Positions 3,002 through 59,739 of a stretch of DNA of 64,000 bases are shown here, one piece after another. A program made the translations under genes and the position numbers. The notes below the pieces were generated by a model. The model was given only the letters and a program-made list of their open reading frames with translations, ran no database searches and was not told where the DNA came from. How positions within the stretch are numbered: position 1 is the stretch's first letter; the number at the start of each line of letters is the position of its first letter. This DNA is from an uncultured Gammaproteobacteria bacterium (GTDB lineage: Bacteria; Patescibacteriota; Patescibacteriia; Magasanikbacterales; GWA2-37-8): contig CAYZYP010000002.1 in NCBI GenBank assembly GCA_964482695.1, positions 46,962 to 110,961 of the forward strand, in the 5' to 3' direction.

Positions 3002-3637
3002 ATGCAGAAAAAGAAGATGAATAGACAATGCGCCATATGTCGACGTGCCGGAGAAAAACTTTTTTTGAAAGGAGAAAAGTGCCAAGGGCCAAAATGTTTG
3101 CTTTTAAAAAGAAATTTTATTCCAGGGCAACATGGTAACAAAAGAAAACATGCCAAACTTTCTGTTTATGGCAAGCAACTAGCCGAAAAGCGCAAAGTAC
3201 AAAAAATTTACGGTTTACGAGAGCGTCAATTTGCCAATTATGTCAAAGAAGCCGCCACTAAAAAAGGCAATACAGGCGAGTATTTATTAAATTTCTTAGA
3301 AGCTAGATTAGATAATGTTGTTTATAGAATAGGATTAGCGTCGTCTCGCCGTATGGCTAGACAAATAACTAACCATGGCCTAATCGCTGTTAATGGCAAA
3401 AAATTAGATGTTCCTTCATATCGTGTTAGAGTTGGCGATATAATAACTGTCAAAGAAACCGCTAAACAAAAAACTTTGTTTAATAAAATTTCCGAAAAAT
3501 TGGCAAAAATAGAAGCAACCAGCTGGTTGGCAGTAGACGCCAAGCAGGTTTCCGCGAAAATGTTAAATGTACCATCGGTTGAAACACCAAGTTTTGATAT
3601 AAAATTGGTAATTGAGTTCTACTCAAGAAAATTGTAA
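3002..3637 (+). CDS. rpsD: 30S ribosomal protein S4 (N-terminal Cys4 zinc-ribbon form)
   Basis: Zinc-ribbon motif CAICRR...CQGPKC followed by NFIPGQHG. The start could alternatively be the Met at 3017. Confidence 0.93.
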   Translation: MQKKKMNRQCAICRRAGEKLFLKGEKCQGPKCLLLKRNFIPGQHGNKRKHAKLSVYGKQLAEKRKVQKIYGLRERQFANYVKEAATKKGNTGEYLLNFLEARLDNVVYRIGLASSRRMARQITNHGLIAVNGKKLDVPSYRVRVGDIITVKETAKQKTLFNKISEKLAKIEATSWLAVDAKQVSAKMLNVPSVETPSFDIKLVIEFYSRKL

Positions 3638-8449: not shown

Positions 8450-9202
8450 ATGATCAGCATTATTATTCCGGTTTATAACCATGCCCACATCTTGGAACGC
8501 AGTTTATGTTCGGTTTGCGCGCAAACCTATCGGCCGCTTGAAGTGATTATTGTAAATGATGGCAGTACGGATAATTTTGAAAAGGTAATGAGCAAGATAA
8601 TTATGAAGAATATGGAGAGAGGAATAAATAATGAAATAAAAATCAAGGTGATAAATCAAGAAAATAAAGGGGCAAGCGCGGCTAGAAATAGGGGATTTAA
8701 AGAGGCTACAGGTAAGTATGTAATTTTTTGGGACGCGGATACAATCGCCCAGCCAAAAATGCTAGAAAAAATGTTAAATGCTTTACAAAATAATCCATCG
8801 GCTAGTTATGCTTATAGTCAATTTAAATTTGGTTGGAAAAAAATAAAAAGTCATGAATTTGACCCTGATTTACTTAAAAAAATAAATTATATTGATGCCA
8901 CTTCTTTGATTAGAAAAAAAGATTACGTAGAATGTTTTTCCGCCAAAGCCGGACCAGCCTTGGGCTGGGATGAATCACTAAAACGTTTTCAAGACTGGGA
9001 TTTGTGGCTAACAATGTTAGAAAAAAATAAAACAGGCGTTTTTGTGCCCGAAGTTTTATTTAAAAAAATAGTTAGTGGCCGCAAGGGGATTAGCAATTGG
9101 CTGCCCAGTTTTGTTTATAAATTGCCGTGGAAAGGTAAAAAAGTTTTAGAATATGAGCAAACCAAAGAAATAATTTTTAAAAAGCATTTAGACGGCGCAT
9201 AA
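8450..9202 (+). CDS. Glycosyltransferase family 2
   Basis: IIIPVYN....VIIVNDGSTD and DADT resemble the GT2 DXD region. Confidence 0.85.
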   Translation: MISIIIPVYNHAHILERSLCSVCAQTYRPLEVIIVNDGSTDNFEKVMSKIIMKNMERGINNEIKIKVINQENKGASAARNRGFKEATGKYVIFWDADTIAQPKMLEKMLNALQNNPSASYAYSQFKFGWKKIKSHEFDPDLLKKINYIDATSLIRKKDYVECFSAKAGPALGWDESLKRFQDWDLWLTMLEKNKTGVFVPEVLFKKIVSGRKGISNWLPSFVYKLPWKGKKVLEYEQTKEIIFKKHLDGA

Positions 9203-9260
9203 ACATTCTTTTTCGCGCTGCGGACTTCGCCGCGACTGCGAAAAAGAATGTTTATGCGCC
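9194..9260. terminator. Bidirectional palindrome shared by the converging GT2 and ligase-like genes
   Basis: 23-bp arms GGCGCATAAACATTCTTTTTCGC / GCGAAAAAGAATGTTTATGCGCC around a 21-nt GC-rich loop. Each arm also encodes the terminal Gly-Ala-stop of one of the two genes. Confidence 0.55.
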
Positions 9261-10706
9261 TTTTAAGTCGTAACTAATTTTAGTCATTATTGCCGTTAGT
9301 AGAATAATTCCCAAAACATGAAATAAAGCCGGTGAAGTGAGATTGATAATCAAAAGAGAAATAAGCATTGCTAAAATATATCTTTTATTTTTAATCCTAT
9401 ATTTTTTTAATATTAAAAATAAAAGATTAAAAATAAAAGATAACCAAATCAAAAATCCAACCATTCCCATTTCATCAATTATTTCCAAATACCCCCAGTC
9501 AAATTGAGTAGTGGTGATTTCTTTCTTAACGACTGGGCTATAGACAGTAACCGTGTCTCCCAAACCATTTCCCCAAAGTGGTTTTTGTTTTATTTTCTCC
9601 CAAATTTTTGGCAGTAGCATCATTCTTGATAGGGAGCTTTTTTCTATTGAAGGCGAGGCAATACTGCCAATTCGTAAGCCTAATAATTCCCAACCAAAAC
9701 TTTGTCCTCGGCTGGCGGCTAAATGAATAGATGAGAAAATTAAGATAAAAATAAAAATAGAACCAAGAGAATAAATAAGCCAGCGTTTCCAATATTGACG
9801 ACTAAATAAAAATAATAATCCGATCAAATAGGCTAGAATGTAAATACGAGTGAGGTTGAGAGAGAAAATGATAAGTAAAGACAAGATAATAAAATGATAA
9901 AATATTTTATCATTTTTGTCATCCCGAGCCACAGCGAGGGATCTCTGTCCGTTCACATAAGTATAGTTGGTATTTGTAGACAGAGATTCCTCGCTTCGCT
10001 CGGAATGACAGTCCTGTCTTGCAACTATTTGATAAATAAAATACAACAACACCGGCACTAACAACAAATGTTCATTAACTACCATCCGGTAAAAATTATT
10101 ATTTAAGTCAGTTATTTTGCCGCCAACAATATTTCTAAACCAATGATAATAGCTATCTTGCAACACTAAAATGTCAGAAGAATAGCTAATAAAAGTCAGT
10201 AAAACAAAAATTACATTGCCGATAATAGCCGCGCCGAGCATGGCAAAAGCCGTTTGTTTGAATTTTTCCGAATGCCATAACTCACATAAAGGAAAATAAT
10301 ACAAAAAGAAAAAATAGGGGATAGCGTCGGCAAAAATTTGGTGTGGATTATGGCCAGCATAATAACCAAGAGTAGAAGAAATAAAAACGATTAATAAAAT
10401 AGCTGAAAAAAGATAACAGATGATCTTGCTGTCTTTAAAAATTGTTTTGTATTTTTTATTATTTATTATCTGTATTGTATAAATTATTAATGAACAAATT
10501 AACAATAACGTTCTTAATGATGTCGAGTTAATGCTAAAAACCCCGCCCGCCCCGCCCAAAATAATTTCACCGGCAATAATATACCAACCACGTTCGTCTT
10601 TTTTTAAAAGTAAGTAAACAGTTGTGGCGAGTATAATAAAAGATAGAAAATAATTTATATACGACATTTCCGGGCTAAAAAAATACGAAAAAAGACGTGT
10701 GAACAC
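9252..10706 (-). CDS. O-antigen ligase/polymerase-like (Wzy_C-type) polytopic membrane protein carrying an in-frame palindromic-element insertion
   Basis: 484 aa, many TM helices, with a periplasmic-loop motif ...WGNGLGDT... resembling Wzy_C. The segment QDCHSERSEESLSTNTNYTYVNGQRSLAVARDDKNDK is encoded by repeat copy A. Confidence 0.55.
   Translation of the reverse strand: MFTRLFSYFFSPEMSYINYFLSFIILATTVYLLLKKDERGWYIIAGEIILGGAGGVFSINSTSLRTLLLICSLIIYTIQIINNKKYKTIFKDSKIICYLFSAILLIVFISSTLGYYAGHNPHQIFADAIPYFFFLYYFPLCELWHSEKFKQTAFAMLGAAIIGNVIFVLLTFISYSSDILVLQDSYYHWFRNIVGGKITDLNNNFYRMVVNEHLLLVPVLLYFIYQIVARQDCHSERSEESLSTNTNYTYVNGQRSLAVARDDKNDKIFYHFIILSLLIIFSLNLTRIYILAYLIGLLFLFSRQYWKRWLIYSLGSIFIFILIFSSIHLAASRGQSFGWELLGLRIGSIASPSIEKSSLSRMMLLPKIWEKIKQKPLWGNGLGDTVTVYSPVVKKEITTTQFDWGYLEIIDEMGMVGFLIWLSFIFNLLFLILKKYRIKNKRYILAMLISLLIINLTSPALFHVLGIILLTAIMTKISYDLKGA
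9918..10011. repeat. RPE-like palindromic element, copy A (full), in-frame inside the ligase-like CDS
   Basis: Left arm GTCATCCCGAGCCACAGCGAGGGATCTCTGTC, ~30-nt loop, right arm GACAGAGATTCCTCGCTTCGCTCGGAATGAC; homologous to the copies at 26855 and 11441. Confidence 0.8.
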
Positions 10707-10749: not shown

Positions 10750-11685
10750 TTATAATTTAAAATTATTAAGCTGCTTGTACCCGTTTATAAAATCCTTTGC
10801 TTTCATTGGCTTTTTTCCTTCCATTTGTAATTCTAAAATTTCTATACAGCCGCTATTACAACCGATAAAAATCTTTTCATCTTTATAAACCACTATCTTG
10901 TTTTCTATTTTTGCCTCGGATGGTTTGATTCTTAACAATTTTAATCTTTGATTTTTTACCTCTATATATATTCCCGGCCAAGGCGTTAACCCCCTGTATT
11001 GATTATAAATTTCCTGGGCTGTTTTATTAAAATCAACCAAGCCGTCTTCGCGCTTCAATATCTTGCAAAATGTAGCTTTTTTGTCATCTTGTGGTTTGGG
11101 GGAAATCTTACCGTCTACATAGGCTGGAATAGTGTTTAAAAGCATTTCAGAGGCCATTTTAGCGGCTTTAGCGTGTAAAGTGGTATAAGTGTCATCTGGC
11201 TCAATATTAAGCGTTTTTTGCGCCAAAATCGGCCCATGATCCATTTTTGCGTCAATGAGCATTATACTAACTCCGGTCTGGCTTTCACCATTTATTAAAA
11301 CCGATTGAATAGGCGATGGGCCGCGATATAAGGGGAGTAGAGAAGGATGAATATTGATAGACCCATGTTTGGGAATGTCTATTATATTTTGTGGAATAAG
11401 TAAGCCATAATCTACCACAATGTTTAAATCAATTTTTTTTGTCATCCCGAGGAGGTTCGCACCGACGAGGGATCTCTGTAATTTTTCCGGTTGCTCTATT
11501 TGCAAACCATGTTTTTGAGCCAAAAGTTTTACTGGTGGCAGTTGCAACTCTTGTTTACGCCCAACCGGCTTATCTGGTTGGGTAATAACTAGTTCAACCT
11601 TAACCAAAGGATTATTTATTAACCCTTGTAAAATCACAGTCGCGAAATCACCAGTACCAAAAAAGATGATGCTTATTTTTGTCAT
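10750..11685 (-). CDS. fmt: Methionyl-tRNA formyltransferase, with a short in-frame insertion from a half palindromic element
   Basis: Contains IIFFGTGDFA, HGSINIHPSLLPLYRGPSPIQ and the C-terminal domain. QRSLVGANLLGMTKK in the interdomain linker is encoded by repeat copy B. Confidence 0.92.
   Translation of the reverse strand: MTKISIIFFGTGDFATVILQGLINNPLVKVELVITQPDKPVGRKQELQLPPVKLLAQKHGLQIEQPEKLQRSLVGANLLGMTKKIDLNIVVDYGLLIPQNIIDIPKHGSINIHPSLLPLYRGPSPIQSVLINGESQTGVSIMLIDAKMDHGPILAQKTLNIEPDDTYTTLHAKAAKMASEMLLNTIPAYVDGKISPKPQDDKKATFCKILKREDGLVDFNKTAQEIYNQYRGLTPWPGIYIEVKNQRLKLLRIKPSEAKIENKIVVYKDEKIFIGCNSGCIEILELQMEGKKPMKAKDFINGYKQLNNFKL
11441..11479. repeat. RPE-like palindromic element, copy B (solo left arm) inside fmt
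   Basis: GTCATCCCGAGGAGGTTCGCACCGACGAGGGATCTCTGT is near-identical to the left arm of copy C; no right arm follows. Confidence 0.75.
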
Positions 11686-12349: not shown

Positions 12350-12457
12350 TTTACGCGTCACGCCAGCGGAAAACACTTTTTGAGCGTTCCCGACTTGTTC
12401 GGGACGATTCAAAAAGTTTTTTCCGCTGGCGCAAGGAATAACATTTACGCGTATTTT
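12350..12457. repeat. Long-hairpin repeat family, copy a (conserved tail abuts the def stop codon)
   Basis: Left CTTTACGCGTCACGCCAGCGGAAAACACTTTTTGA, inner hairpin, right TCAAAAAGTTTTTTCCGCTGGCGCAAGGAATAACATTTACGCGTATTTTT. Confidence 0.7.
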
Positions 12458-22611: not shown

Positions 22612-23002
22612 TTATATTAAAAAATTTTACAGATAATATTTTTTTGTGGATAACTTCCATTGACCAAGAATAACTTTTCATCTAAACTATCTTTAGTTCT
22701 TTCAAATATATCAAGAGCGGTGCGAGGGAATCGGCCCGACAACCACCCAGCAACCCCCAAAGCGGGGGTGCTAATTCCGAACCCTAAATACAGGGAAAGA
22801 TAAGTTTTGTCTTGTCTACCCGCCTCTGGCGGAGACAAGGCAAAAAACGCTTTTTTAAAAAGGCCTTTTACTCTTTCTTTGTGATATATTTAGGGTAAAG
22901 GGCTTTTTTGTTTTATTATGTAAAAATTGTATTTCCATTCATAGACGGTTTAAGAATTAAAACAATTTAATTTTTAAACCGTCTATGACGGAAGGAGAAG
23001 AA

Positions 23003-23155: not shown

Positions 23156-23771
23156 CCACCGAGGCAATTCCCTCCCCATGGGTCGACCTCGGTGGCGACC
23201 CAATCCCTTTTCAAAAAATCATAAACTTAAAATTACATAAAAACACCCCGACTAAGTCAGAGTGTTTTTAAATTTTGCTTTCCAGTCAGTGAATATTTTT
23301 TGCAACATTGTTATCCCCGCGAAAGTGGGGGATCCAGAATAGTTGTAAAAAATACAGGGGACTGGAACGCAGTACCCATTTGGTTTTTTTTGGCGCGGAA
23401 CGCGCCTAAGAGAGGAGATTATTGCTCGGCAACCTCGATTCCGGGGTCGCTGAGATTATACCCGGAGAGTTGGAGGCTGCCCGGGTAGCGGAAGATGAGG
23501 CGGTCATAGGAGTACCACCTCGATGCTGAATTTTTGTGCGGGCGTGCTAGAATTTCCTTGTTTCTCGCCCGTTTTTCAGTAGAAGGCGTCCGTATTCCAC
23601 CGAAGAAAAAAATGGTGGTTTTTTTTCCATCTTTTTCCAGTGTTGCGTTCAACATGTTTTTTGCCATCGCTTCTTCCTTTCTTGTAACGTGGTTGTACGA
23701 CCAGAATTGGATGAAAGAATACCAAAGAGAGAGAGTTGTCAAGAAAAAGCGATGCTGATATAATTACTCAC

Positions 23772-25946: not shown

Positions 25947-27305
25947 ATGCTACCAAAACCTAAAAAAATTCGTCAAATTTATTTAGACCACGCCGCAACT
26001 ACCTACACAGAGAAAGAAGTGCTTGATGCCATGTTGCCCTATTTTAACCAAAAATACGGCAACCCATCTTCTTTATACAATACAGGCAGAGAAGCCAACG
26101 GAGAGATAAATAATGCCAGACGAATGGTAGCGCGCATAATCCATGCTTTACCAGAAAATATTATTTTTACTGGTAGTGGCACAGAATCCGATAACCTGGC
26201 AATTTACGGTATTGCCCGCGCCCACGAACAAAAAGGCAAACATATTATTTCTTCCCCCATAGAGCATCACGCTGTGCTGTATCCGCTAGAAGATTTGAAA
26301 AAACAAGGTTGGGAAATTACTTACACAAAGGTGGATAAAAAAGGTTTTGTTGATGCTAAAGAAATTATCAAAAATATTAAAAAAGATACTGTTTTAATTA
26401 CAGTAATGTACGCCAACAATGAAATAGGCACCATAGAATCAATAGCCGAAATCGGCCGGGAAATTTTAAAAATTCGTAAACAAAATAATTCGCCGTATCC
26501 TTATTTTCATACCGATGCTTGTCAGGCAGCCGGCTACTGCGATTTGGATGTCGAGAAACTACACGTAGATTTGATGACAATCAATGGCAGTAAAATTTAC
26601 GGCCCAAAGGGGGTTGGCATGTTGTATCTGCGACGTGGTGTTAAAATTAAACCGCTGATATTGGGTGGCTCGCAAGAAAAGAAATTGCGCGCTGGCACGG
26701 AAAATGTGCCCGGTATAGTGGGGTTTGCCAAAGCTTTTGAAATGGCGCAAAAGAATAGAGAAAAAGAAAGCGCGCGAGTCGCTGGTTTACGAGATTATCT
26801 TTGGCAAAGGATTGAAAAAGAAATTTCAGACGTTCGTCTCAACGGCCCAGTTTTGTCATCCCGAGGAGGTTCGCACCGACGAGGGATCTCTGTCCCGTCG
26901 GACAGTAGGCGACCAGACAGAGATTCCTCACCCTGCGATGGGTTCGGAATGACAAAAACGGATTTTCGTGAATTCTGCAATGACAGTGAACGACTACCTA
27001 ATAATCTCAACGTCACATTCATGAACGTGGAAGGTGAAGCCATGCTCCTATATTTAGATGAATATGGTGTGATGTGTTCCACCGGTTCGGCCTGCACTTC
27101 GGATTCACTAGATCCATCACATGTCTTAACTGCTATCGGATTACCATACGAATACGCTCATGGAAGTTTGCGTTTTAGTTTAGGAAAACGCAACACCAAA
27201 CAAGATATTGATTATTTGATGAAATATTTGCCAAAAATAGTAGAGACTTTGCGCGAAATGTCGCCAGTGAATATGGGGGTTAAAAAACATGCTAAATACA
27301 AATAA
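25947..27305 (+). CDS. iscS: Cysteine desulfurase (IscS/NifS class I) carrying a ~46-aa in-frame insertion from a palindromic element
   Basis: PLP-Lys region SGSKIYGPKG and the active-site loop SGSACTS. The segment VLSSRGGSHRRGISVPSDSRRPDRDSSPCDGFGMTKTDFREFCNDS is inserted between LNGP and ERLPNNLNVTF. Confidence 0.9.
   Translation: MLPKPKKIRQIYLDHAATTYTEKEVLDAMLPYFNQKYGNPSSLYNTGREANGEINNARRMVARIIHALPENIIFTGSGTESDNLAIYGIARAHEQKGKHIISSPIEHHAVLYPLEDLKKQGWEITYTKVDKKGFVDAKEIIKNIKKDTVLITVMYANNEIGTIESIAEIGREILKIRKQNNSPYPYFHTDACQAAGYCDLDVEKLHVDLMTINGSKIYGPKGVGMLYLRRGVKIKPLILGGSQEKKLRAGTENVPGIVGFAKAFEMAQKNREKESARVAGLRDYLWQRIEKEISDVRLNGPVLSSRGGSHRRGISVPSDSRRPDRDSSPCDGFGMTKTDFREFCNDSERLPNNLNVTFMNVEGEAMLLYLDEYGVMCSTGSACTSDSLDPSHVLTAIGLPYEYAHGSLRFSLGKRNTKQDIDYLMKYLPKIVETLREMSPVNMGVKKHAKYK
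26855..26953. repeat. RPE-like palindromic element, copy C (full), in-frame inside iscS
   Basis: Left arm GTCATCCCGAGGAGGTTCGCACCGACGAGGGATCTCTGTC, loop, right arm GACAGAGATTCCTCACCCTGCGATGGGTTCGGAATGAC. Confidence 0.85.
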
Positions 27306-41922: not shown

Positions 41923-41994
41923 ACGGGGCAAGAGGATTCGAACCTCCGACTGTGGGTTGTCAACCCACCACTCTGCCAACTGAGTTATGCCCCG
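41923..41994 (-). tRNA. tRNA-Val (anticodon GAC)
   Basis: Hand-folded cloverleaf: acceptor CGGGGCA/TGCCCCG, D stem ACTC/GAGT, anticodon stem GTGGG/CCCAC with loop TTGACAA, T arm GGAGG-TTCGAAT-CCTCT. CCA is not encoded. Confidence 0.8.
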
Positions 41995-42000
41995 AAATAA

Positions 42001-42073
42001 AGCGGGAAGCTGGATTTGAACCAGCGACATCGAGTTTAAAAACTCGCGCTCTGCCATGCTGAGCTATTCCCGC
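42001..42073 (-). tRNA. tRNA with glycine-type acceptor stem and U73 discriminator but a noncanonical anticodon loop (CGAG-TTTTTAAA-CTCG); identity uncertain
   Basis: Hand-folded: acceptor GCGGGAA/TTCCCGC plus discriminator T (identical to the E. coli tRNA-Gly acceptor), D arm GCTC-AGCATGGCA-GAGC, T arm GCTGG-TTCAAAT-CCAGC. The anticodon arm folds only as a 5-bp stem with a 6-nt loop, or a 4-bp stem with an 8-nt loop. Confidence 0.6.
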
Positions 42074-42120
42074 CTAACATAAAAATTTATATCATTTTTT
42101 AGTGATCTAGTCAAGCATCT

Positions 42121-56416: not shown

Positions 56417-57472
56417 ATGCGCCGTTTTCAATCCACTAATGCTTTTAATAAATACCGCCCTTACCAAAATCCATGGCAACGTTTTTGCAATTTTTGGAAA
56501 AAAAGAAAAAACAAAAAAATTCCCGTTGTCAGAATAATAGAAACTAACAAATTTGGCGGTAATCCGTATAAAAAAAAGGAGGATACAAAAAGAAGACTTA
56601 GTATTGGCGGAAAGATATTTTTTTTATGTGCTATCACTACTGCTTGGTTAGGGCTTTTAATGTATCTACCTTATTTCCAAATCAAACAAATTAAATACAC
56701 TGGCTTAGAAAATATTTCCAAAAATGAATTAGACTCCTATTTAAATGATAATTTTTTTAAATATAGCCGTGTTATACCTTGGAAAAACTACTTTTTAATC
56801 AACAACGATAAAATAGCAAAAAAAATAGAAAATGATTTTCCGGTCTTAAAAATAGAGGTAAAAAAATGTTTCCCCAATAAAATAGAAATAACTTTAATAG
56901 AAAAAATTTCTACGCTTATTTATGATAACGGAAGTAACTATTATTTATTAGATAGTGGGGGAAACGTGATAAAATTTTTAACCAATGTAAGCGCCAGCGA
57001 ATTTAGAATCATTGAAATTGCTGTTTCTAGTACCAAACCAACAACAACTAATTTTGCCGCCAATCTGGCATCTAGTACCACTTCAACCAACAAAATAGTA
57101 ACTTCTTCGTACCACGTGCCAGATTACCAAAAAATTCAAAAACAATTTGGCAAATATCCTTTATTATACGATAAAAGAAATTTAACTATTACCGGCAATC
57201 AATTAAATAATGTTGTGCCAACTATCCATGTAGCTAGTATATTAGATTGGAACAAACAATTGCCAGAAAAGGGGATAGCCCAACCGCTGTATTATGTTTT
57301 AGAAAATATTGGCGCTGGCATAGAAATTGAAACTAATAAACAATGGAATATCTTTTTTCAGCCAAATATTGATTTAACTACTCAGCTGAATCGTTTAAGA
57401 ATAATTTTAAAGGATAATAAACCGTGGCAATACATTGATCTAAGACATGGAGAAAGAGTTTATTGGAAATAA
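56417..57472 (+). CDS. Hypothetical membrane-anchored protein (single N-terminal TM helix; possibly FtsQ/DivIB-like)
   Basis: One TM helix near residue 70 followed by a large extracytoplasmic domain; no definitive motifs. Confidence 0.3.
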   Translation: MRRFQSTNAFNKYRPYQNPWQRFCNFWKKRKNKKIPVVRIIETNKFGGNPYKKKEDTKRRLSIGGKIFFLCAITTAWLGLLMYLPYFQIKQIKYTGLENISKNELDSYLNDNFFKYSRVIPWKNYFLINNDKIAKKIENDFPVLKIEVKKCFPNKIEITLIEKISTLIYDNGSNYYLLDSGGNVIKFLTNVSASEFRIIEIAVSSTKPTTTNFAANLASSTTSTNKIVTSSYHVPDYQKIQKQFGKYPLLYDKRNLTITGNQLNNVVPTIHVASILDWNKQLPEKGIAQPLYYVLENIGAGIEIETNKQWNIFFQPNIDLTTQLNRLRIILKDNKPWQYIDLRHGERVYWK

Positions 57473-57540
57473 AAAGGGGATAAGTATATTTGACCTATTT
57501 CATTGATATTATATAATATAGTTAATGTCGTATAAGATAG

Positions 57541-57663
57541 ATTAAGCGACATAGTATGGTTCTTTTTTATCAAAAAATATACTCTTACTAATAGCTAACC
57601 ATACTGTGTCGCTTAATCTGCCCACGTAAAGCGACATTTTTTAAAATGTCGCTTTACGTGGGC
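57541..57663. promoter_or_regulatory. Two adjacent palindromes sharing the motif AAGCGACA(T/C) directly upstream of the xer gene; candidate dif-like site or operator
   Basis: IR1 ATTAAGCGACATAGTATGGTT...AACCATACTGTGTCGCTTAAT (57541-57617); IR2 is a perfect palindrome GCCCACGTAAAGCGACATTTT TT AAAATGTCGCTTTACGTGGGC (57620-57663). Confidence 0.5.
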
Positions 57664-57705
57664 TATGTGAGCTACAATATATCTTTTATCAATGTGGAAA
57701 ATATT

Positions 57706-58665
57706 ATGCACAAATCAAACCAGCCTATTACTTACCATATTCCTAATTTTTTGGATTTTTGTGAAGTGGAAAAGGGTTTGAGTCCAGTTACCACCAAAAA
57801 CTATCATAATTTCTTAAAGGTGTTCATTAACTGGCTAAAAGAGCAAAAAAAATCGCTTTTAAGGCCTCATGAACTCACTCCAGAGCATATCTGGCAGTAC
57901 CGGCTATATTTATCGCGTAAAAACGATTTAAAAGGCAAATACATCAAAAAAACCACTCAAAACTACTATCTAATAGCTTTGCGCAACATGCTAAACTATT
58001 TTGCTGAAAAAGATATCATTTCTTTGCCTTCGGACAAAATTAAATTACCTAAAATAACTGACAAAGATAAAAAAATAAAATTCTTACGTTTTGATCAATT
58101 AGAAAAATTAATGTCTATGCCAGACACTTCTAAGACCGAGGGTTTGCGTGATCGGGCGATTTTAGAAATCCTCTTCTCTACTGGTATGCGAGTTTCCGAA
58201 CTTACGTCGCTTAATATTAGATCATTTAATATTGAAAATTTAGAAAAAAATAATTTTATTGAACAAGAATTAAGTATTAGTGGCAAAGGTGGTTCTACTA
58301 GAACTATCTATTTTTCCGCAAGTGCTTTAAAGTGGTTGGCACAATACCTTAAAACCAGAAAAGACATGAACACTCCTCTATTTATCAACTATAAAAAAGA
58401 CAAAGACGATGATGAACATCGCCTTACTCCGCGCTCTGTTGAACGGATTGTCAGAAAATATGCCGTTATGGCAGGGCTGCCTGTTGATGCCACTCCGCAC
58501 ACACTTCGCCATAGTTTTGCCACTGATTTATTAGAACACGGCGCGGACGTGCGCTCGGTGCAAGAGCTATTGGGACACAAAAACATCGTTACCACGCAAA
58601 TTTATACTCATGTTACCAATCCTCACTTAAAAGATATTCATAAACGATTTCATAGTGGAACATAA
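57706..58665 (+). CDS. Tyrosine site-specific recombinase (XerC/XerD/XerH-like)
   Basis: N-terminal core-binding domain and catalytic R...HTLRHSFAT...Y region ending ...GHKNIVTTQIYTHV. Start chosen at MHKSNQPITYHIP. Confidence 0.88.
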   Translation: MHKSNQPITYHIPNFLDFCEVEKGLSPVTTKNYHNFLKVFINWLKEQKKSLLRPHELTPEHIWQYRLYLSRKNDLKGKYIKKTTQNYYLIALRNMLNYFAEKDIISLPSDKIKLPKITDKDKKIKFLRFDQLEKLMSMPDTSKTEGLRDRAILEILFSTGMRVSELTSLNIRSFNIENLEKNNFIEQELSISGKGGSTRTIYFSASALKWLAQYLKTRKDMNTPLFINYKKDKDDDEHRLTPRSVERIVRKYAVMAGLPVDATPHTLRHSFATDLLEHGADVRSVQELLGHKNIVTTQIYTHVTNPHLKDIHKRFHSGT

Positions 58666-58695
58666 AAATAAACCCCATATATATGGGGTTTATTT

Positions 58696-59739
58696 TTAAA
58701 ATTTTAAACTCGCTTCTATTATTAAATCCAACATCTTATTAAAACTAATTCCCATTTTTCCAGCTGCTTCTGGCAGTAAACTAACCGCCGTCATACCGGG
58801 AATAGTATTAGTTTCTATCACATAAAAATTACCATCATCAGCCACAAAAATATCTGTTCTAGACATCCCTCTGCAACCCAAAACTTGGTGCGCCTTAACC
58901 GCGATAACTTGCAATTTTTTATTTACAGTTGGCGAAAAATCGGCTGGACAAATATGGGTAGAACCGCCTTCGTCGTATTTTGACTTATAATCATAAAATT
59001 TACCTTTATTGGCGATTATTCTTGTTGGCGGCAAGGCAAAAGGAATGCCGTTTTTTTCTAACACGCCACAAGTCGCTTCTTTGCCTTTAACAAACTTCTG
59101 CGCCATTAGATAAGAAAAATTTTTAAATGTACTTTCTATTATTTTAACCATTTCTTTTTCCGTGTTAACTATAGAAACCCCCACAGCCGAACCTTGATCA
59201 ACTGGCTTAATAACAACTGGAAAACCAATTTTCTTAATAATTTCTTTAATTAATTGTTTTTTATCTTTTAGCCACTCTATTTTTTGAAAATCTATAAAAT
59301 CCGGGGTTAACAAACCGTGCGCTCGATATATTTCCGCGGTTTTGGCTTTATTCATGGCCAAAGCGCTGGCTAACACTCTGGAGCCAGTATAAGGCACGTT
59401 TAAACACTCTAGTAAGCCTTGTAAGCAACCGTCTTCGCCGTAAGTGCCGTGCAAAGCAATAAAAATTAAATCTAATTTTGTAGCGCTTAAATTATAATTA
59501 TCTTGGCTTGTTGTGATGGAAAAACTTTCTTGCTGTTTTTTGTCGCCGTACTTAATTGATTTTAAATCTCCACTATTAAGCAAAATCATTTTACCGTCTT
59601 TGGACATCTCTATTGGAATAATTTCATATTTCTGATTATCTAAATTTTCTGTTACCGCTCTACCGGTAATTAAAGAAATCTCTCGTTCTGCCGAAGGACC
59701 GCCCATCAATACGCCAATACGTAATTTTTGTTTAGACAT
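58696..59739 (-). CDS. ddl: D-alanine--D-alanine ligase
   Basis: ATP-grasp motifs and the conserved EDGCLQGLLE, FPVVIKP and ETNTIPG. Start chosen at MSKQKLRIGVLMGG. Confidence 0.92.
   Translation of the reverse strand: MSKQKLRIGVLMGGPSAEREISLITGRAVTENLDNQKYEIIPIEMSKDGKMILLNSGDLKSIKYGDKKQQESFSITTSQDNYNLSATKLDLIFIALHGTYGEDGCLQGLLECLNVPYTGSRVLASALAMNKAKTAEIYRAHGLLTPDFIDFQKIEWLKDKKQLIKEIIKKIGFPVVIKPVDQGSAVGVSIVNTEKEMVKIIESTFKNFSYLMAQKFVKGKEATCGVLEKNGIPFALPPTRIIANKGKFYDYKSKYDEGGSTHICPADFSPTVNKKLQVIAVKAHQVLGCRGMSRTDIFVADDGNFYVIETNTIPGMTAVSLLPEAAGKMGISFNKMLDLIIEASLKF

Follow-up and report, generated by a model that had tools for sequence, protein, structure and literature searches.

A candidate dif site joined to the xer promoter, and palindromes built from its half-sites, in a Patescibacterium

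The DNA analysed here is a 64 kb stretch (the window) from a Magasanikbacteria-like Patescibacterium, and the element in question lies directly upstream of its gene for a Xer-type tyrosine recombinase (xer), where a 28 bp sequence resembling a dif site is followed by two large palindromes. From its sequence, the best description of the locus is the dif/Xer module of a Xer lineage from Patescibacteria that stands out in two ways, namely by a fusion of the candidate dif site to the xer promoter and, in some lineages, by accessory half-site hairpins. We consider it likely (probability roughly 0.7) that this is a self-contained Xer/dif module for chromosome-dimer resolution at the replication terminus, in which the core would be the sequence at 57525–57552 and the palindromes would be accessory. 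The sequence anatomy, its conservation, the promoter fusion, a terminus-type GC skew and covariation in the palindromic stems were all observed directly. An earlier note on the same DNA had taken the palindromes to be the cognate dif-like site of the recombinase; a conserved dif-like site adjoining the xer gene does exist, at 57525–57552, but the palindromes are not that site.

Patescibacteria (also known as the candidate phyla radiation, CPR) form a huge, mostly uncultured bacterial branch with minimal genomes. The upstream regions of xer loci from 25 species-level genomes, approximately 45 metagenome contigs and nine closer relatives were read, and counts out of 37 refer to distinct orthologous xer configurations in Patescibacteria. 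Individual loci are given L numbers where they need to be told apart, half-sites are given H numbers, and the conserved site is called dif1 where it is set against an inverted copy, dif2. The features of the region, in window coordinates, are as follows.

57490–57517, plus strand: predicted sigma-70-type xer promoter, made up of TTGACC (57490–57495), 16 nt and TATAAT (57512–57517)
57525–57552, plus strand: candidate dif core, made up of ATGTCGTATAA (57525–57535), GATAGA (57536–57541) and TTAAGCGACAT (57542–57552)
57539–57619, no strand assigned: palindrome 1 (hairpin 1), with arms AGATTAAGCGACATAGTATGGTT (57539–57561) and AACCATACTGTGTCGCTTAATCT (57597–57619) and a 35 nt loop (57562–57596)
57606–57637, minus strand: inverted pseudo-dif 'dif2', reading ATGTCGCTTTA-CGTGGGCAGA-TTAAGCGACAC on the minus strand
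57620–57663, no strand assigned: palindrome 2 (hairpin 2), with perfect 21 nt arms around TT
57706–58665, plus strand: Xer-type tyrosine recombinase gene (319 aa), identified by catalytic motifs, profile searches and orthologues

The 28 bp site, its recombinase and the xer promoter

The core consists of two 11 bp arms around a 6 bp centre (11+6+11), and its arms match at 9/11 positions as inverted repeats. A 28 bp dif-like site is shared by the 37 distinct orthologous xer loci. When a loose 11+6+11 pattern was applied to the genome loci, the site was found no more than 400 nt upstream of xer in 23/25 and 0.7 and 1.1 kb upstream in the other two, placing all 25 within 1.1 kb, and most of the metagenome and closer-relative loci also contained it. 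The pattern occurs 2.4 times per kb in the 400 nt upstream of xer and 0.065 times per kb elsewhere, a 37-fold enrichment. Apart from chance matches of the pattern to AT-rich sequence, the site is single in the 64 kb window and in the 20 kb loci. It is genetically linked to the recombinase gene, with a gap to the start codon of 4–45 nt in most loci, approximately 185 nt in some Gribaldobacteria-type loci and 153 nt in the window.

Among the 35 distinct site sequences collected, the left arm is nearly invariant (nnnTCG[T/C]ATAA), the right arm is variable past TTAA or ATAA, and the TAA ends point to the 6 bp centre. The site of close relatives is ACGTCGTATAA-CATAGA-TTAAGAGACGT, and those of other clades include ACTTCGTATAA-CACAGG-ATAACCGTAGT and GGTTCGCATAA-TTATAC-TTAAACGAATA. 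In one clade the site, ACTTCGCATAA-TGTATA-TTAATACACGT, is in inverted orientation and has the same centre as the dif site of Escherichia coli. The left arm resembles the XerC-side arm of the dif sites of E. coli (GGTGCGCATAA) and Bacillus subtilis (ACTTCCTAGAA). A canonical dif site with the XerD arm TTATGTTAAAT elsewhere in the window was considered and rejected, as the 14 matches with 2 mismatches (13.3 expected, and none better) were at the level of chance.

The open reading frame (ORF) of the recombinase had been listed from 57646 but the true start is the ATG at 57706, giving a protein of 319 aa as in all orthologues; the Xer proteins of relatives begin with MHKS or MNKS. The translation contains the R...K...HxxR...H...Y catalytic motifs (in the segments GMRVSE, GKGG, HTLRH, LGH and IYTH), and Pfam searches identified the Phage_integrase catalytic domain and SAM-like N-terminal domains. 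The protein is Xer-like, yet it falls below the cut-off of every curated family: it scored 230.2 bits against 329.6 for XerD (TIGR02225), 223 against 335.15 for XerC (TIGR02224), 196 against 220 for XerA (NF040815) and 117.5 against 267 for XerS (NF003462) in NCBIfam. Among solved structures, the protein comes closest to those of archaeal XerA (4a8e) and E. coli XerD (1a0p), and the XerH structure (5jjv) is distant, at only 54.5 bits. Orthologues with 70–81% identity are very common in Patescibacteria. The recombinase had been called the only one of Xer type, and a tblastn search of the 64 kb indeed found no second tyrosine recombinase besides the gene at 57706–58665. No FtsK gene was found among the large ORFs of the window that were checked. 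Because the arms of the site are quasi-symmetric and neither is a canonical XerD arm, one recombinase probably acts on both. Xer protomers would bind the two 11 bp arms and exchange strands across the 6 bp centre, as at other dif sites.

The predicted xer promoter matches the consensus at 11/12 positions and is the best promoter-like site between 57300 and 58800. A promoter with 9–12 of the 12 consensus positions ends exactly 7 nt before the site in 27/37 distinct orthologous loci, and the distance is 13 nt in five Gribaldobacteria-type loci. With the -10 box ending 7 nt before it, the site would begin at the predicted +1 of the xer transcript, and since the core lies at this position Xer bound to it should repress xer. 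Autorepression of xer by dif-bound Xer is thus a plausible and natural reading of the arrangement, by which the recombinase would limit its own expression. The earlier note had offered an autoregulatory operator as its alternative to a dif site, and the fusion of site and promoter makes such regulation plausible; for the palindromes, operator function likewise stays a live candidate.

In three loci (L093, L099 and L101) the full dif site is not adjacent to xer, and a lone dif-like half-site, A[A/C]GTCG..TAA, has nevertheless been kept 7–12 nt upstream of the xer -10 box, TGGTATAAT (at approximately 9950–9975, 1945–1975 and 1445–1475, respectively). This hints that Xer may bind its own promoter independently of recombination. 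The L093 locus (contig FX_forest_Scaff3946828, 2192–10001, with a Xer protein that is 79% identical) has its full dif site at 3201–3228, 6.8 kb from xer, and a degenerate half-dif, ACGTCGTTTAATGTAAT, directly before xer. Between the two lies a 6.7 kb foreign-looking island of very uneven composition (28–56% GC). None of the island's ORFs matched a Pfam family, and PHROGs gave only weak matches to families of unknown function. The island could be an element integrated at dif, though its features are only suggestive.

The replication terminus and known Xer systems

A switch from positive to negative GC skew is the signature of a replication terminus. In the window, cumulative G−C climbs to a plateau at 55–57.5 kb and drops from 58 kb on. 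Every long ORF between 18.8 and 58.67 kb lies on the plus strand and every one between 58.70 and 64 kb on the minus strand, the switch being at 58.68 kb. Cumulative skew, whose behaviour the earlier note had named as a check on a terminus, peaks at the locus, and gene orientation converges there. In approximately 20 of 24 relatives the 10 kb to the left of xer has positive skew and plus-strand genes and the right side has negative skew; the skew switch is also seen in L004, L005 and L007–L009 despite a majority of plus-strand ORFs on the right. By skew and convergent gene orientation, in the window as well as in relatives, the locus has the characteristics of a replication terminus. In L054, a contig of almost genome size (Ga0074198_1000003, 976,338 bp), xer and dif are found at 492–499 kb, almost exactly in the middle of the record, which fits a terminus provided that the record starts at the origin.

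Known systems provide points of comparison. In XerS/difSL of streptococci and lactococci and XerH/difH of Helicobacter and Campylobacter the site adjoins the gene, forming one module at the terminus, and the arms of difSL and difH are imperfect inverted repeats of which one is better conserved (PMC5357621). The locus described here similarly has its site next to the recombinase gene at the terminus, with imperfect inverted arms. Unlike them, its protein belongs to neither the XerS nor the XerH family, its arm sequences differ and its centre is 6 bp rather than the 11 bp of difSL. Neither the exact promoter–dif fusion nor the accessory half-site hairpins feature in the Xer review (PMC5357621). 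The locus resembles XerCD/dif of E. coli and B. subtilis and XerA/dif of archaea in the 28 bp length, the 11+6+11 arrangement and the position at the terminus, and the nearest protein structures come from these two systems. It differs from XerCD/dif in its right arm, TTAAnnGnnnn in place of the XerD arm, and in the one xer gene seen in the window; moreover, the dif site of E. coli is not linked to the xer genes, in contrast to the dif site in the window. XerL/dif of the Legionellales is a recently recognised, lineage-specific single-recombinase system whose site was found by terminus position and the integration of mobile elements (PMC9765430). It involves another protein family and another site, and it has been proven experimentally, with excision of a dif-flanked cassette in a heterologous host, whereas the system in the window is known from sequence. 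The 'Cand' subgroup of simple tyrosine recombinases is Xer-related and comes from candidate phyla (Smyshlyaev et al. 2021, PMC8138268). The window protein shares this taxonomic origin, and the passages of the paper that concern this subgroup describe no DNA site. No paper on a Patescibacterial dif site or on chromosome-dimer resolution in this group was found in the literature searched.

That the 28 bp sequence, instead of being a site of dimer resolution, just serves xer as an operator or initial-transcribed element, or is the attachment site used by a domesticated integrase, seems quite unlikely. Its fixed position relative to the promoter would suit such a role, as would the variable right arm that departs from the canonical XerD arm. 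Against this, the 11+6+11 geometry, the TAA and TTA flanking the centre and the XerC-like left arm are those of a dif site, the terminus-type skew and convergent genes recur in many lineages, housekeeping genes adjoin the locus and the recombinase is a highly conserved, Xer-like protein. A site linked to its gene is also documented for XerS and XerH (PMC5357621).

If the 28 bp sequence is dif, it supplies a sequence marker for the terminus in CPR assemblies, against which genome completeness, skew and replication-rate estimates can be checked. The presumably autoregulated, compact recombination module lends itself to direct tests, whether in vitro or in a heterologous host. The site is also the place to look for integrating elements that hijack Xer, such as the L093 island, and the accessory half-site hairpins present a tractable puzzle of how recombinase sites duplicate or gain regulatory structure.

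Anatomy and evolution of the palindromes

The two palindromes are real and lie where the earlier note had placed them, 167 to 43 nt upstream of the xer start codon. Palindrome 1 has the 35 nt spacer described, but its arms are 23 nt long rather than 21; they are complementary at 22/23 positions, the exception being a T.G pair. Its 5' arm begins with the final 3 nt of the dif centre, runs through the right arm of dif and takes in 9 more nt, and its 3' arm holds H3, an inverted copy of the right arm (GTGTCGCTTAA, 57606–57616), followed by TCT. Palindrome 2 is, as reported, a perfect 44 bp palindrome (57620–57663) with TT at its centre. It can be written as GCCCACG, H4 (TAAAGCGACAT, 57627–57637), TTTTTAAA, H5 (ATGTCGCTTTA, 57646–57656) and CGTGGGC. 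H4 and H5 are arranged tail-to-tail, with CGACAT pointing inward, which is the reverse of the conserved site. H3 and H4, separated by a 10 bp spacer (57617–57626), are head-to-head, and we infer that they could serve Xer as an inverted dif-like pair; dif2 is presumably incompetent for recombination.

The motif (T/A)AAGCGACA is present four times in alternating orientation, as had been claimed, with TAAGCGACA at 57543 (plus) and 57607 (minus) and AAAGCGACA at 57628 (plus) and 57647 (minus). A fifth related half-site, ATGTCGTATAA at 57525–57535, had been overlooked. The interval previously put forward as the site, 57541–57663, holds only the right arm of the conserved site, without the left arm and most of the centre, and the first TAAGCGACAT copy within it is therefore the right arm of the true core. 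Five of the 23 matches in the window to ATGTCGNNTAA, allowing no more than one mismatch, are within 132 bp here and the rest are at background level; the 64 kb contain no further copies of the palindromes or clusters of half-sites.

Folding of the region is much more stable than that of shuffled sequence (z = −10.8 for the plus strand and −11.3 for the minus strand). With H5 omitted, dif1 and the inverted dif2 can pair in the window, in L007 and in L017, giving a forked hairpin with an asymmetric central loop; in the full sequence this pairing is far less stable than the H4:H5 hairpin. A known RNA family was considered for the palindromes and rejected: at gathering thresholds over the whole window Rfam had no family there, and permissive E-values over 57350–57800 returned far sub-threshold hairpin-type matches, mostly to miRNA precursors. 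An invertible switch between the arms of palindrome 1 was also rejected, by inference, because the loops (3–4 nt in L097, L103 and L007 and 35 nt in the window) are too short for synapsis.

Exact and near matches to the locus were found in groundwater metagenomes and in metagenome-assembled genomes labelled Magasanikbacteria, Parcubacteria or Patescibacteria. Three assemblies made independently from other groundwater samples contain the palindrome region unchanged, and it is therefore not an assembly artefact. The contigs L001 and L003, from two other samples and different assemblers, both end at 57440, which is 85 nt upstream of dif and within the 3' end of the FtsQ-like gene that precedes xer. 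This common end points to variation in the population, or to a graph branch, immediately to the left of the dif–xer module.

Conservation next to xer orthologues had been proposed as a check on the palindromes. They are missing in 32/37 orthologous configurations, where no significant structure was found, and present in five; the adjacent 28-mer is the part that is conserved. The double hairpin occurs in the window and in L097/98, L103/104, L007/L035 and L017/51/52, the Xer proteins of which are 81, 79, 75 and 55% identical to that in the window, respectively. In all five lineages the order is dif, loop, H3, 10–12 bp, H4, 5–9 nt, H5 and the complement of the 7 nt that precede H4. H3 is an inverted copy of the right arm of the genome's own dif site with the last 3 nt of the centre, and the half-sites of the module follow each genome's own dif arms (window, L097, L103, L007 and L017). 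In the window H4 is like the right arm at 10/11 positions, and in L017 H4 and H5 are copies of the left arm (10/11), so that both arms of dif2 in L017 copy its own dif arms. As H4 takes after the right arm in the window clade and after the left arm in L017, independent origins are indicated, and the module seems to have arisen at least twice, in two clades. A minimal hairpin 1, in which no more than the outer part of the right arm is repeated in inverse (AGGCGTA-TTA-TACGCCT), was found at 9946–9990 in L010, without hairpin 2.

Some distances in the module are constant and others are not. The H3–H4 spacing is 10–12 bp in all five lineages and the H4–H5 spacing is 8–9 bp in four of them. The loop is 3–4 nt in L097, L103 and L007, 35 nt in the window and approximately 70 nt in L017, the H2–H3 distance ranges from 1 to 90 nt, and hairpin 2 ends 10 to 62 nt from the start codon. 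The conserved H3–H4 spacing and the half-site content argue for binding by the recombinase. Pairing that continues past the half-sites, together with the varying loop length, favours nucleic-acid structure or concerted evolution over a fixed geometry of double-stranded protein sites. In a hand-trimmed alignment with 13+13 stem pairs, 96.9% of the cells in the stems pair and 14/26 pairs were changed on both sides, against 0/500 shuffles. The loop of hairpin 2 is shared by L097 and L103, making their modules homologous, and two compensatory pairs differ between them in the outer stem, which is not part of a half-site. This suggests that pairing has been maintained. The inner parts of H4 and H5 are not complementary in L097 and L103.

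Possible roles of the palindromes and neighbouring features

Our best guess is that the palindromes serve the xer leader as an accessory element that binds Xer and forms hairpins. In the proposed arrangement, inverted copies of the half-sites in the leader would create a second, inverted dif-like pair with a 10 bp spacer and two stable hairpins, and would thereby add binding sites for Xer, secondary structure that tunes xer expression or the accessibility of dif, or both. An accessory element was ranked first among the readings of the palindromes, and a pure operator, a non-functional duplication or remnant and an RNA leader were ranked lower and close to one another.

Several points weigh against the picture of a dif/Xer module at the terminus with an accessory palindromic element. 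GC skew and gene strand are confounded inside the window, where only 5.3 kb, with five genes, is available to the right of xer. Coding-strand skews taken as a whole are compatible with a switch but third-codon-position skews gave inconsistent signs, and as the latter test was equivocal in the window the comparison of multiple loci was relied on for the terminus. The clade with the inverted dif site (L019–L022) shows no clear skew switch. The uniqueness of the site in this organism and the number of Xer paralogues were assessed within the 64 kb of the window. Binding and cleavage by Xer, autoregulation, the action of a single recombinase and any function of the palindromes are all things that we infer from the DNA. 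Most relatives do not have the palindromes, which are therefore not essential. The stems used for covariation were preselected as inverted repeats, and independent inverted duplications would give the same numbers without selection; the statistics thus mainly reveal that symmetry persists while the sequence differs. The stem positions that do not form Watson–Crick pairs favour neither strand, two being T.G on the plus strand and two G.T if read on the minus strand, and so give no specific support for a role at the RNA level. A strand-specific RNA signal from wobble pairs was set aside as uninformative for this reason, with two positions in favour of each strand.

The palindromes might instead be a pure array of double-stranded DNA operators, in which H3, H4 and H5 would strengthen autorepression of xer and the potential to form hairpins would be incidental. 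The constant H3–H4 distance, the 8–9 bp between H4 and H5 in four of the five lineages and the location between promoter/dif and start codon all suit an operator, as do the lone half-sites kept by the xer -10 box in L093, L099 and L101 although the full dif is displaced. However, pairing exceeds the 11 bp half-sites, by 9–10 extra nt in hairpin 1 (window and L017) and by the 7 nt outer stem in hairpin 2, these non-half-site positions covary, and an H2–H3 distance of 1 to 90 nt suits a stem-loop better than a fixed protein geometry. We regard an array of this kind as unlikely, though worth keeping in view.

Much the same standing belongs to the idea that the palindromes have no function and arose by fold-back or template-switch inverted duplication at the terminus, or are the remnant of an element that integrated at dif through a folded attP like that of phage CTX. 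The region can be read as partial copies that zig-zag, each inverted relative to the one before (dif1 on the plus strand, dif2 on the minus strand and half a dif on the plus strand), and the perfect or near-perfect arms in the window suggest a recent origin. The patchy distribution, the different type of H4 in the window clade and L017 that points to independent origins, the forked dif1–dif2 hairpin that is possible in the window, L007 and L017, and the 6.7 kb foreign-looking island beside dif in L093 would also fit. This is countered by the recurrence of the same detailed architecture in two distant clades and by the two compensatory pairs in the outer stem of hairpin 2 between L097 and L103, which suggest maintenance. 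Further, no mobile-element genes are nearby in the window, which has no second complete direct dif, and scans of viral contigs gave nothing above chance: four pattern scans for a dif mimic returned 0, 0, 0 and 3 matches. Two of the three were inside coding repeats or a terminase-like ORF and the third was at the end of an ORF, approximately the number expected by chance on a rough estimate. A CTX-type attP or an integrative mobile element that exploits Xer (IMEX) was rejected as the identity of the structure, since the window shows neither element genes nor a second direct dif, and viral contigs lent no support.

Action of the palindromes as RNA, as hairpins in the 5' untranslated region of xer that would control the stability, processing or translation of the mRNA, appears improbable. 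Perfect stems of 21–23 bp are like the substrates of RNase III, transcription predicted to start at dif would include both hairpins on the plus strand, the fold is very stable and its stems covary. One T.G position in the window and one in L017 would be wobble pairs on the plus strand; conversely, L007 and L103 have A.C or C.A mismatches on the plus strand that would be wobble pairs only on the minus strand. An RNA leader does not explain why the stems are made of recombinase half-sites, and the variable distance of 10 to 62 nt between hairpin 2 and the start codon and the lack of an Rfam match also speak against it.

A further reading, which we hold to be rather remote, is that the double hairpin is a folded substrate whose structure Xer would recognize. 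A cruciform or hairpins in single-stranded DNA might stack into a dif-like duplex, which would have two half-sites around a 10–12 bp centre with one strand interrupted, or dif1 and dif2 might form a fork like those of CTX and integron attC. The folded attP of CTX (PMC5357621) and attC are substrates of tyrosine recombinases composed of inverted repeats, and the resemblance to them lies in the two inverted dif-like sites around a loop, which can pair into a forked hairpin with an asymmetric bulge. In contrast to these, the structure in the window is chromosomal, stands beside a genuine-looking dif, spans approximately 125 bp and carries no element genes. Were the substrate folded in this way, Xer might use it to control dif activity or to mark the terminus, or it might give mobile DNA a docking site, and it would represent a chromosomal, structure-specific accessory Xer site that evolved at least twice in Patescibacteria.

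The proposal with which the earlier note began, that the paired palindromes and in particular the 44 bp one are the cognate dif core, with 11 bp arms around a 6–8 bp AT-rich centre (AAAGCGACATT-TTTTAA-AATGTCGCTTT), is very improbable. The palindromes do adjoin xer, sit at the skew switch and contain motifs like Xer half-sites. They are nevertheless lacking upstream of xer in 32/37 configurations in which the adjacent 28-mer is conserved, the half-sites are tail-to-tail, opposite to those of the conserved site, and complementarity even fails between the inner parts of H4 and H5 in L097 and L103. The strong stem-loops downstream of a long co-directional operon might suggest intrinsic terminators of the upstream ftsQ operon, but this is hardly credible and was rejected, as there is a strong promoter between ftsQ and the hairpins, no T-run follows either stem, a terminator scan did not include them and most relatives do not have them. 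The earlier view of the palindromes as a protein-binding candidate and not a terminator agrees with these findings, as does its statement that no convergent gene lies upstream.

Two further features flank the region.

56417–57472, plus strand: gene for an FtsQ-like protein with a POTRA domain, co-directional with and upstream of xer, with the same neighbour in most relatives
58663–58698, no strand assigned: perfect 36 bp palindrome, TAAAAATAAACCCCATAT-ATATGGGGTTTATTTTTA, between the convergent xer and ddl genes

The FtsQ-like gene is the last of a long plus-strand run of cell-envelope and housekeeping genes. The 36 bp palindrome overlaps the xer stop codon and lies exactly at the switch in gene strand (ddl encodes D-Ala-D-Ala ligase); it looks like a bidirectional terminator.

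Elsewhere in the window, the 14-mer GAGGGATCTCTGTC has five copies with no more than one mismatch, against 0.05 expected, at 9936–9992, 11467–11480 and 26881–26929. It occurs twice as an inverted pair that forms a hairpin, and all copies are inside long ORFs (9252–10706 and 10750–11685 on the minus strand and 25947–27305 on the plus strand). Other long inverted repeats in intergenic regions, at 12361–12431, 9188–9266 and 22939–22988 with arms of 33, 29 and 23 nt, respectively, have no sequence kinship to the dif half-sites. At 41923–42074 on the minus strand there is a tRNA-Val(GAC) followed 6 nt on by a second tRNA, which scored 59.9 bits in Rfam and to which ARAGORN gave an undetermined identity with a 2 nt 'tt' anticodon. 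An S-adenosylmethionine (SAM) riboswitch (RF00162, 55.6 bits) was found at 22705–22806 on the plus strand, upstream of the ORF that starts at 23736.

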